DNA from: Fibrobacter succinogenes subsp. succinogenes S85
GTDB taxonomy: Bacteria; Fibrobacterota; Fibrobacteria; Fibrobacterales; Fibrobacteraceae
Length of the DNA stretch: 32,000 nt
Assembly (NCBI RefSeq): GCF_000146505.1
Contig: NC_017448.1
Coordinates: 2,610,001-2,642,000 of the forward strand
Direction: 5' to 3'
Both the position numbers and the translations under genes were made by a program. Below are positions 8,431-21,663 of the stretch, one piece after another. The notes beneath the pieces were generated by a model. It saw only the letters and a list, made by a program, of their open reading frames with translations, did no database searches and had not been told where the DNA came from. The number at the start of each line of letters is the position of its first letter. The first letter of the stretch is position 1.

Positions 8431-8830
8431 CAAACACCCCCCGAGACCAGGAAGCGGATGTCGGAAGCGAAGCTTACGGACATCCATTTCCTGGTCGTTT
8501 TTGTGTTCTGTAAACACCCCCGAGGCTCGGATGCACACGTGGAAAGCTTGCTTTCCAACGTGTATATCCGAGCCGTTTTTGGTTGTTCTTAAAACACCCC
8601 TATCACACATTTCCAGAACAACCAAGAGGCCAGAATCACATCTCGGAAAGCTTGCTTTCCTGCGGGTATATCCGAGCCGTTTTTGGTTGTTCTTAAAACA
8701 CCCCTATCACACATTTCCAGAACAACCAAGAGGCCAGAATCACATCTCGGAAAGCTTGCTTTCCTGCGGGTATATCCGAGCCGTTTTTGGTTGTTCTTAA
8801 AACACCCCTATTACACATTTTATCCCCTCA
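8431..8830 (+). repeat. Tandem array of terminator-like stem-loop units in the GH43-esterase intergenic region. It contains two identical 104-bp copies (8581-8684 and 8685-8788) plus a partial third copy.
   Basis: Every unit begins with (t)aaacacccc and ends with ccgttttt(g). Units at ~8431-8500 and ~8510-8580 each fold into a ~17-18-bp hairpin (gaccaggaagcggatgtc / gacatccatttcctggtc; ggctcggatgcacacgt / acgtgtatatccgagcc) followed by T5. The 104-bp units share only the 3' arm and the loop ggaaagcttgctttcc. Confidence 0.85.
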
Positions 8831-10439: not shown

Positions 10440-10466
10440 AAGGCAAAAATTTTCGTTCTCTCTCCA

Positions 10467-10501
10467 AGAGCGGTTCCCCAAATGGGGCCGCTCTTTTTTT
10501 T
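10467..10501 (+). terminator. Rho-independent terminator after the esterase gene
   Basis: Hairpin agagcgg-ttcccc-aaat-gggg-ccgctct followed by T8. Confidence 0.8.
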
Positions 10502-10504
10502 GAA

Positions 10505-10972
10505 TTATAGAGAATTGACGACTAATTTCACATCCTCAATAAAATATTGTAGTGAAGAATATTTGAATACGGGCAACTTGCTAAAATTGCTGTTTTCTAG
10601 TGATGCTGCAAATTTTTTGAGGTATTCGGTGAAGTTGGTGACGATTGTCATCAAATTTTTGTTGAGTTCAACCCATTCCCTCTTGTCAATGGTGCATTGA
10701 CACTCAATGTCTAATTGTTGAACGACTACTGCCTTGGTAAAATCAATACCGGGCAATCCTTTCTTTTCGTCTGTGAGTCTGCCTGAAGTTTTGAAAGTGA
10801 ATGCGTATGGGTGTTTGATATTTGTTCGAAATGGGATGGCAAAAATTGTTCCATTACATTCGATTATGAAGGACAGGTAAGGTCTGCCCTCTTTGTTGGT
10901 GAGAATTTCCTTGTGGTCTTTATGTCGGTCAAAGAATGATTGCTTCAGAAATACGGTTTGTGCCAGTTTCAT
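10505..10972 (-). CDS. Candidate type III toxin-antitoxin toxin (ToxN/AbiQ-like endoribonuclease), 155 aa
   Basis: The call rests on architecture (see the next three features). SD GAGGG lies 4 nt before the ATG at 10972 (MKLAQTVF...). The ORF-track start at 11026 would run through the terminator hairpin, so I reject it. The size and a by-memory resemblance to ToxN fit: RPYLSFIIECNGTIFAIPFRTNIKH versus ToxN AFIGIVLEIQGHKYLAPLTSPK, and GIDFTKAVVV versus GLINLKFMIP. Family membership is not verified. Confidence 0.65.
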   Translation of the reverse strand: MKLAQTVFLKQSFFDRHKDHKEILTNKEGRPYLSFIIECNGTIFAIPFRTNIKHPYAFTFKTSGRLTDEKKGLPGIDFTKAVVVQQLDIECQCTIDKREWVELNKNLMTIVTNFTEYLKKFAASLENSNFSKLPVFKYSSLQYFIEDVKLVVNSL

Positions 10973-10980
10973 TTTTCCCT

Positions 10981-11022
10981 CAAAATAAAAAAGGCCGTAT
11001 TTCATATATAACGAAATACGGC
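10981..11022 (-). terminator. Intrinsic terminator between the repeat RNA and the toxin ORF. In ToxIN-type loci this is the element that sets the antitoxin:toxin ratio.
   Basis: The - strand reads GCCGTATTTC-gttatatat-GAAATACGGC (10-bp perfect stem), followed by CTTTTTTATTTTG. Confidence 0.8.
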
Positions 11023-11030
11023 TCATCTTA

Positions 11031-11132
11031 GACCTTTCTTTTTTATCTTAGGTGGACTGGTCTGCCACCCTGTCATTGGTTGACCTTTCTTTTTTATCTT
11101 AGGTGGATTGGTCTGCCACCCTGTCATCTATA
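11031..11132 (-). ncRNA. Candidate type III antitoxin RNA: two tandem direct repeats with a 51-nt period
   Basis: 11031-11076 and 11082-11127 are identical at 45 of 46 positions. The RNA-sense unit is AUGACAGGGUGGCAGACCA(G/A)UCCACCUAAGAUAAAAAAGAAAGGUC. It contains a GGUGG/CCACC hairpin and an A-rich tract. ToxN-family enzymes are known to cut in A-rich sites. Confidence 0.7.
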
Positions 11133-11135
11133 AAT

Positions 11136-11164
11136 AATATACAAAAAATTTGCGGGAAAGTCAA
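11136..11164 (-). promoter_or_regulatory. Sigma70-type promoter driving the repeat-toxin unit
   Basis: The - strand reads TTGACT-N17-TATATT. The -10 box ends about 8 nt before the first repeat. Confidence 0.65.
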
Positions 11165-11303
11165 TATGTCGGCATTGCTATCCATCTTCTTATCCATCGT
11201 GGATAAAATGTCAAAGGAACATGTGTAAATCCTTTAATTTTTTTGTTTTTTAGGGGGTATTTTTAGTTTGGGGATGATTAATACTTAGGATATAGGAGTG
11301 CTT

Positions 11304-20730: not shown

Positions 20731-21663
20731 ATGACCGAAAAGGCAAAAGCAAAGAAAGCTGTCTCCAAAAAAGCTGCAGAATCATCAAAGACAACTACTG
20801 CTAAAAAGGCTACGGTAGCTAAGAAGGCTGTGGCGTCTCCAAAGTCTCCTGTAACCAAGAAACCCGCTGCTGCCAAGAAGCCCGCAGCAACTAAAAAATC
20901 CTCTGAACAAAAAGTTGTCGTCGCGAAAGACAAAAATGACTTAATAAAGCTGATAAAAGCCGCCATAAAAAAGGATGGCGAAAATTGCGATTTGAATTTC
21001 ATTGACGTATCTAAAGTTACGGAAATGAACGAACTGTTCATGGAAAGCAAATTTAATGGCGACATCAGCAAGTGGGATGTGTCCAATGTGACTGATATGA
21101 GATTTATGTTTGAAGGGTCCCGATTTAACGGCGATATCAGTAAGTGGAATGTGTCAAATGTGACGACTATGGACTCTATGTTCAAGCATACTCCGTTCTG
21201 TGGCGATATCAGCAAATGGAACGTATCAAATGTGACGAGTATGAACTTTATGTTCTGCGGATCGGCTTTCAACGGTGACATCAGCAAGTGGGATGTATCC
21301 AATGTGACCGACATGAGTTTTATGTTTGCTGATTCGCAATTTGATGGTGATATCAGTCAGTGGAATGTGTCGAAGGTGACGAGCATGGACTTTATGTTCA
21401 AAGAATCTCCGTTCGATGGCGACATCAGCAAATGGAACGTATCGAATGTGACTAGCATGAATTCTATGTTTGATCGGTCCCGGTTCAATGGCGACATCAG
21501 CAAGTGGAACGTGTCCAAAGTAACTACAATGGAAGCCATGTTTGCAGATTCTGAATTCAGCGGTAACATCAGTAAATGGAAGGTCTCAAAAGACGCAAAT
21601 ATGTTTGAATTGTTTGTTGGATCTCCTTTGGAATGTGATCCTCCAAAGTGGTACAAGGAATAA
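20731..21663 (+). CDS. Protein with an N-terminal Lys/Ala-rich histone-H1-like tail fused to ~8.5 tandem 24-aa DUF285 / BspA-type leucine-rich repeats
   Basis: The N-terminus is MTEKAKAKKAVSKKAAESSKTTTAKKATVAKKAVASPKSPVTKKPAAAKKPAATKK. It is followed by repeats of F(N/D)GDISKW(N/D)VS(N/K)VT.M..MF with a 72-nt period. No signal peptide is evident. A GTG at 20584 with SD aaggagg is an alternative start. Confidence 0.7.
   Translation: MTEKAKAKKAVSKKAAESSKTTTAKKATVAKKAVASPKSPVTKKPAAAKKPAATKKSSEQKVVVAKDKNDLIKLIKAAIKKDGENCDLNFIDVSKVTEMNELFMESKFNGDISKWDVSNVTDMRFMFEGSRFNGDISKWNVSNVTTMDSMFKHTPFCGDISKWNVSNVTSMNFMFCGSAFNGDISKWDVSNVTDMSFMFADSQFDGDISQWNVSKVTSMDFMFKESPFDGDISKWNVSNVTSMNSMFDRSRFNGDISKWNVSKVTTMEAMFADSEFSGNISKWKVSKDANMFELFVGSPLECDPPKWYKE

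Follow-up and report, generated by a model that had tools for sequence, protein, structure and literature searches.

The TenpIN system of Photorhabdus luminescens TT01 is the founding and experimentally tested member of its type III toxin-antitoxin family, and toxicity, neutralisation by its own RNA and activity against coliphages and phage PhiM1 have all been reported for it (Blower 2012, PMC3401426). In the same catalogue, tenpIN loci carry repeats with a mean length of 50.9 nt (39-57) in 2.2 copies (1.9-3.0) and toxins with a mean length of 164 aa (Table 2 of Blower 2012, PMC3401426), and one tenpIN locus is entered there for Fibrobacter succinogenes S85 (Table 1 of Blower 2012, PMC3401426); fibrobacteria are named again in a 2025 survey of TenpN proteins (PMC12283969). 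Here, a 32,000-nt stretch of F. succinogenes subsp. succinogenes S85 (NC_017448.1, positions 2,610,001-2,642,000; hereafter the window) was analysed, and a short open reading frame (ORF) preceded by tandem repeats was compared with these systems. Coordinates are positions in the window, and all tenpIN elements lie on its minus strand. We conclude, with a probability of about 0.9, that these elements form a genuine and complete tenpIN type III toxin-antitoxin cassette. With a repeat of 51 nt, 1.9 copies and a toxin of 155 aa, the S85 locus falls on the TenpIN family average and is no outlier; it is typical of the described TenpIN family, already known, and does not represent a new family. Judging from the strain and the single entry, it is very likely the locus that was catalogued for S85 in 2012.

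The original prediction, made from the letters of the window, had read the arrangement as a type III toxin-antitoxin locus, and this reading is borne out by a toxin of the TenpN family and by an order of promoter, repeats, terminator and toxin gene that corresponds to the criteria of Blower for type III loci. Its further proposal, that the locus stands for a divergent or novel family of type III with a repeat of unusual length, has to be given up, since 51 nt is the average for TenpIN and the protein passes the cutoff of the TenpIN model NF047358; the unit had seemed long because the lengths set against it (34-45 nt) are those of ToxIN and CptIN. The remark that no characterised example was known from the phylum is correct insofar as none of the Fibrobacter loci has been put to an experimental test, but S85 was catalogued in 2012 and fibrobacteria appear in the 2025 survey.

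Comparison of the 155-aa protein with NCBIfam gave a match to NF047358.1 (TenpIN family toxin, equivalog) with a score of 130.8 bits, the cutoff being 90, and E = 4.2e-38, spanning profile positions 1-140 of 141, and this TenpIN model was the only one matched in that collection. An exact-sequence look-up identified the protein as ACX75365.1 / WP_015732106.1 from F. succinogenes subsp. succinogenes S85, and WP_049858423.1, a 166-aa version with an alternative start that comes from the other S85 assembly, already bears the name 'type III toxin-antitoxin system TenpIN family toxin'. The name 'protein AbiQ', assigned automatically by JGI, is a loose label, as the ToxN/AbiQ sequence family was not matched. 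An exhaustive HMMER search through 1.84 billion representatives of clusters returned 327 relatives at E <= 0.001, the closest of them outside the Fibrobacter group having about 36-41% identity. In a family alignment composed of the window protein and 29 relatives, 28 of which have 27-37% identity, all 30 sequences match the TenpIN model NF047358. The residues R36, Y38, P53, R55, H60, G75, D77 and K80 have been described as conserved and probably functional in TenpN (Nadig 2025, PMC12283969). The corresponding signature is present in the window protein as R30-P-Y32, P47-F-R49, H54 and G75-I-D77-F-T-K80; R30, P47, R49, D77 and K80 are invariant in the alignment, and Y32 and G75 are found in at least 90% of the sequences. 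By its sequence, the protein is thus placed firmly in the TenpIN family.

An AlphaFold2 model of the protein, for which 16 Fibrobacter homologues were used, had a mean predicted local distance difference test (pLDDT) score of 86 and a predicted template modelling (pTM) score of 0.83. Among the best 50 of 183 Foldseek matches to PDB entries with E <= 10, only MazF-type RNases, ToxN (2xd0, 4ato) and CptN (4rmo) occur, with a template modelling (TM) score of 0.52 and a probability of 0.99 for ToxN 2xd0 and a TM score of 0.47 for CptN 4rmo. The model may be said to be consistent with an endoribonuclease fold of the MazF/ToxN type, in keeping with the structural comparison to ToxN and AbiQ that had been envisaged in the original prediction.

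The tenpIN operon begins with a predicted sigma-70-type promoter (11136..11164) composed of a -35 box TTGACT (11164-11159), a spacer of 17 nt and a -10 box TATATT (11141-11136), which agrees with the consensus at 10 of 12 positions and ends 8 nt before the first repeat. In the AT-rich spacer such a match is by itself not above chance, two sites being found against 2.3 expected from shuffled sequences. A promoter 8-9 nt 5' of the first repeat is kept, however, in all 14 related loci that reach that far and in two genomic contexts, with the variants TTGAC(T/A/G) or TTGGCT, spacers of 16-18 nt and TATATT or TATACT, and it is this conservation, not the consensus match alone, that makes the tenpIN promoter credible. 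It is followed by the two tenpI antitoxin repeats, the first of 51 nt (11077..11127; ATGACAGGGTGGCAGACCAATCCACCTAAGATAAAAAAGAAAGGTCAACCA) and the second of 50 nt (11027..11076), which differs by one A/G exchange in the hairpin loop; the ATGA at 11026-11023 corresponds to the opening of a third unit. Tandem Repeats Finder reported, at 11031..11127, a period of 51 with 1.9 copies and 97% matches; between the 46-nt cores (11127-11082 and 11076-11031) the A/G exchange is the single mismatch, and a 39-nt core of the repeat occurs exactly twice in the window against 0.00 occurrences expected. An intrinsic terminator (10981..11022) separates antitoxin and toxin; it reads GCCGTATTTCGT-TATAT-ATGAAATACGGC followed by CTTTTTTATTTT, and in the terminator scan its stem (11022..10994) has 10 perfect pairs, or 12 if one G-T pair is allowed, before CTTTTTTATT. 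Next come a Shine-Dalgarno-like GAGGG, read from the sequence 4 nt 5' of the ATG (10977..10981), and the tenpN gene for the predicted endoribonuclease (10505..10972; 155 aa and stop), whose frame runs from the ATG at 10972 to the stop at 10505. The longest mechanical ORF, of 173 aa, would start from an ATG at 11026; some gene callers mis-annotate tenpN by choosing starts inside the terminator that give 173, 167 or 166 aa.

Thus the promoter, the two repeats that are identical at 45 of 46 positions with a period of 51 nt, the 10-bp perfect hairpin with its T-run (11022-10981) and the GAGGG with the ATG that opens the 155-aa ORF were all recovered as originally described; the notion of two 51-nt units needs a minor amendment, for the first unit has this length but the second is effectively a 50-nt unit followed by the start of a third.

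Scans of genomes and metagenomes together with contig look-ups yielded 22 related loci. The same unit of promoter, one or two repeats, terminator, RBS-like box (for ribosome-binding site) and toxin gene recurs in two unrelated contexts. Twelve of the 22 loci occupy the same site between the esterase and alpha-galactosidase genes; in these, the flanking proteins are 77-96% and the TenpN proteins 88-93% identical. In a second Fibrobacter clade (L016-L022 and L011), the toxins are 56-68% identical, the repeat core is nearly the same, and the site lies 3' of a UPF0020 (RlmL-like) methyltransferase gene, beside a DUF5662/ABC transporter/PqqD/ScmC-like cluster. The latter cluster resembles a peptide-maturation locus. 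The terminator hairpin and T-run are kept in the related loci, with a stem altered on both arms in L016 (CCGCGTTTCGT...ACGCGG), and so is the order of a GAGG or AGGA box, a run of A and the ATG. The repeat motif was found in these loci only directly 5' of the toxin gene, so that within the sequences compared it does not behave as a common intergenic element occurring without the ORF, and when viral contigs were scanned for the exact repeat pattern there were 0 matches. Among intact syntenic copies the ratio of non-synonymous to synonymous substitution rates (dN/dS) of the toxin is 0.04-0.09 at dS values of 0.5-1.5; the toxin gene is maintained under strong purifying selection.

For tenpI RNAs in general, an H-type pseudoknot and an A-rich tract have been proposed (PMC12283969). 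In the S85 repeat, a candidate pseudoknot of this type can be drawn in which stem 1 pairs G7-G12 with C22-U27 (GGGUGG/CCACCU) and stem 2 pairs G15-C18 with G43-C46 (loop GACC with a downstream GGUC), an A-rich strand at positions 28-42 (15-16 nt) lying between the stems. Across 15 distinct units, all 150 of 150 pair cells are standard pairs, and at the pair 16-45, 12 units have A-U, two have G-U and one, that of L016, has G-C. From the sequences compared, with this one compensatory event, a tenpI pseudoknot seems plausible. A hairpin that would instead span the junction of the repeats (GUCA-N5-UGAC) was considered and set aside; it is broken by the U45-to-C exchange of L016, which is compensated in stem 2 of the pseudoknot, and this single event mildly favours the pseudoknot.

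By analogy with Photorhabdus TenpIN, ToxIN and CptIN, the following sequence of events may be proposed. The two 51-nt tenpI repeats would be transcribed from a constitutive promoter, and the terminator would end most transcripts and so provide an excess of antitoxin RNA, whereas occasional read-through would supply the TenpN mRNA. TenpN, as a presumed endoribonuclease with a MazF/ToxN fold, would cut the repeat transcript into unit-length RNAs, each of which might fold compactly, possibly as the H-type pseudoknot, and combine with TenpN in a closed RNA-protein complex in which the active site is blocked. Upon a shut-off of transcription or a faster turnover of RNA, for instance during phage infection, the labile RNA would be lost and freed TenpN could degrade cellular and phage RNA, with growth arrest or abortive infection as the expected outcome. 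Toxicity and a role in phage defence are likewise expected for the S85 cassette from the systems named.

Several observations weigh against a tenpIN cassette that works in this way. No Pfam family was found for the 155-aa protein at E <= 1 and no PADLOC model matches it; both blanks are explained by the fact that neither collection has a matching TenpN model. Searches of PDB sequences with the protein and two profiles gave nothing significant, the top match being ToxN from Bacillus thuringiensis at E = 0.41, where in the comparison of profile with PDB the segment RPY...FAIPFR is aligned to RPY...YFVPLT; there was no TenpN sequence among the PDB chains searched. The Foldseek matches to MazF, ToxN and CptN have weak E-values of 0.007-0.17. 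As regards the RNA, the pseudoknot scores were equalled by 109 of 500 shuffles, which follows from the fact that the repeat units hardly vary, and only one pair covaries; nested folding of single units was no better than that of shuffled sequences (z between -0.5 and -1.8), with a program that predicts nested structures and not pseudoknots. A further misfit comes from two loci, L001 (4895-4945) and L005 (1395-1445), in which a single tenpI repeat accompanies an intact TenpN with 92-93% identity, an arrangement that does not suit excision of a unit between two identical sites. Finally, no experiment on the S85 locus was found in the literature searched.

It is conceivable, and in our estimate unlikely, that the tenpI RNA of Fibrobacter does more than the textbook model provides. 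Such a role is suggested by a repeat core that has stayed nearly frozen while the toxins diverged to 56% identity, by the survival of the RNA at its site after deletion of the toxin, and by the retention of a single copy with an intact toxin in some lineages. If this were true, a single unprocessed unit might suffice for neutralisation, with a mode of assembly unlike that of ToxIN, or the RNA might serve a further purpose: it might, for instance, act as a regulator, be a leaderless message of 34 codons, or be an addiction element by which the hemicellulase gene cluster, where it has become fixed, is stabilised.

The loci that have lost their toxin also bear on the question of whether the S85 cassette is an inactive relic that is decaying and has no present function. 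In four syntenic loci (L003, L004, L013 and L015) the toxin is frameshifted or deleted at its 5' end, and the promoter persists with at least the beginning of the repeats. An internal deletion or frameshift affects the toxin of L003; in L004, which has one repeat and a truncated toxin, and in L013, codons 1-74 are gone and the terminator is fused to codon 75 or 76; in L015 a deletion extends from repeat position 12 into codon 27 and appears to have occurred between the repeat sequence GGCAGACC and a near-identical stretch in codons 28-31. In a divergent clade (L017), the protein P0021 is without 16 residues that include the conserved His54. The loss of the toxin before the antitoxin is the order expected of an addictive toxin-antitoxin pair. 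The S85 toxin, in contrast, is of full length and has all signature residues, promoter, RBS and terminator are intact, and the low dN/dS values among intact copies speak for a function, so that a relic in S85 is very unlikely.

It was also considered that the repeats act only in cis, as a leader that forms with the terminator an attenuator of toxin translation or transcription and gives rise to no trans-acting RNA. This explanation takes some support from the minimum-energy fold of the leader, in which the A-rich tract of repeat 1 is paired with the U-run of the terminator, and from the occurrence of single-repeat loci. The whole leader folds with z = -5.0, a value that stems mostly from the terminator. 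On the other hand, no Rfam family reached its gathering threshold anywhere in the window and, at the locus and at E <= 10, there were only chance-level leader matches that pick up terminators, so that no known leader or riboswitch was recognised. Moreover, the tested TenpIN acts in trans (Blower 2012, PMC3401426), and the unit has been duplicated and is kept as a whole, as is characteristic of a processed RNA. A leader acting in cis alone is accordingly given very little probability.

A different question is whether the repeats encode a small protein, an antitoxin or a leader peptide, at the presumed 5' end of the transcript, the RNA not being the antitoxin. The repeat region does form an open in-frame ORF of 34 codons (MTGWQTNPPKIKKKGQP twice), 51 is divisible by 3 and the ATG is invariant. 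Gene callers place a 42-aa 'gene' across the repeats in L017, L018 and L022, and in P0018 the repeats are fused to the toxin in a product of 207 aa. The pattern of substitution is nevertheless not that of a coding sequence. Between the intact syntenic copies, 24-41% of the third-codon positions of the toxin differ, yet the repeat cores of 46 nt show just 0-2 differences; 12 of the 15 third-codon positions of the core never vary, and 5 of the 8 variable core positions among distinct units are first or second codon positions. In addition, a 1-nt insertion breaks the frame in repeat 1 of L019. As third positions are frozen, substitutions fall on positions 1 and 2 and a frameshift is tolerated, selection on the repeats acts on the RNA sequence and not on a peptide. 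Since the repeat ORF also has no Shine-Dalgarno sequence and the antitoxin of the tested TenpIN member is an RNA (Blower 2012, PMC3401426), an encoded peptide is highly improbable. That the locus belongs to a new, fourth type III family, with a ToxN-like toxin and an unusually long repeat, can practically be dismissed, for despite the missing Pfam ToxN_toxin and PADLOC matches and the 36-41% identity of the closest non-Fibrobacter relatives, the TenpIN equivalog cutoff is exceeded by 40 bits, the TenpN signature is present, distant relatives all match the TenpIN model, the unit has the TenpIN mean length and S85 has had an entry as a tenpIN host since 2012.

The tenpIN cassette is surrounded by genes that are all on the plus strand and encode GH43 with CBM6, an esterase with CBM4_9, a GH27 alpha-galactosidase with CBM6 and GH141 with CBM6, in agreement with the hemicellulase cluster noted at the outset. 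Just 3' of the tenpN stop, a G+C-rich 12-bp hairpin (10466..10495; both strands), found by the terminator scan and in the sequence, is a canonical terminator for the convergent plus-strand esterase gene; it may also end the minus-strand transcript, although a T-run is missing on the minus-strand side. Where the tenpIN promoter and the alpha-galactosidase gene diverge, a perfect palindrome TTATCCA-N3-TGGATAA at 11190-11206 (0.02 expected by chance) adjoins a TTGACA box, and similar sequence is found in L001-L004; the palindrome is a candidate operator at which a regulator of either the glycosidase gene or tenpIN might bind. Between the GH43 and esterase genes, the spacer (8513-8824) holds three tandem copies of a 104-bp unit (Tandem Repeats Finder: 8541-8820, 2.7 copies, 97%), and the first copy contains an imperfect inverted repeat with 22-nt arms that are 82% complementary (8524-8545 / 8553-8574). 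The 104-bp unit had no Rfam match, and a 25-nt motif of it, sought as an exact match, was found in 0 of the 22 related loci, even where these extend over the same spacer. Inside a large ORF, at 21051-21590, there are coding tandem repeats (periods of 72, 144 and 216 nt) that correspond to protein repeats of about 24 residues with 71-82% matches.

As a catalogued member of a described family that had already been named by the annotation pipeline of NCBI, the S85 locus has little discovery value. Its value is modest, as a clean and well-conserved TenpIN example from an under-studied phylum, and its assets are near-identical repeats, a simple candidate pseudoknot and natural variants with two repeats, with a single repeat and with a deleted toxin. 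This series of variants could help to define the TenpI processing site, the assembly and the structure of the TenpIN complex.

Among the known systems, CptIN from Eubacterium rectale (PDB 4RMO), whose complex is a heterotetramer, shares with the S85 cassette the type III architecture, with about two repeats of 40-48 nt, and the predicted S85 fold gives the weak structural match (TM 0.47) to its toxin; unlike CptN, the S85 toxin belongs to another sequence family, as it matches only the TenpIN model. With ToxIN from Pectobacterium atrosepticum (pECA1039) and B. thuringiensis (pAW63) and with AbiQ from Lactococcus, the cassette has in common the promoter, the RNA repeats, a terminator of the leaky type and a predicted endoribonuclease. 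P. atrosepticum ToxI consists of 36-nt units in 5.5 copies. The modelled S85 fold resembles ToxN (2xd0, TM 0.52; 4ato) and the RPY...(F/Y)xxP motif can be aligned weakly with ToxN from B. thuringiensis, but in contrast to ToxIN and AbiQ the S85 toxin has no significant sequence similarity to these proteins (no Pfam match; E = 0.41 in PDB), and the ToxI unit is, on average, shorter (38 nt) and repeated more often (2.8 copies) (Blower 2012, PMC3401426). Photorhabdus TenpIN differs from the S85 locus, which belongs to a host of the phylum Fibrobacterota and encodes a toxin only about 30-40% identical to TenpN proteins from outside Fibrobacter. The S85 repeats are nearly identical to each other, whereas many tenpI repeats are imperfect (PMC12283969), and of the two systems it is that of Photorhabdus for which toxicity, antitoxicity and abortive infection have been demonstrated. 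With the Photorhabdus system it nevertheless shares the toxin family, as defined by the NF047358 cutoff, and the same operon layout, with similar values for the length of the repeat, the number of copies and the size of the toxin; like other tenpI RNAs, the S85 repeat has an A-rich tract and a potential H-type pseudoknot.

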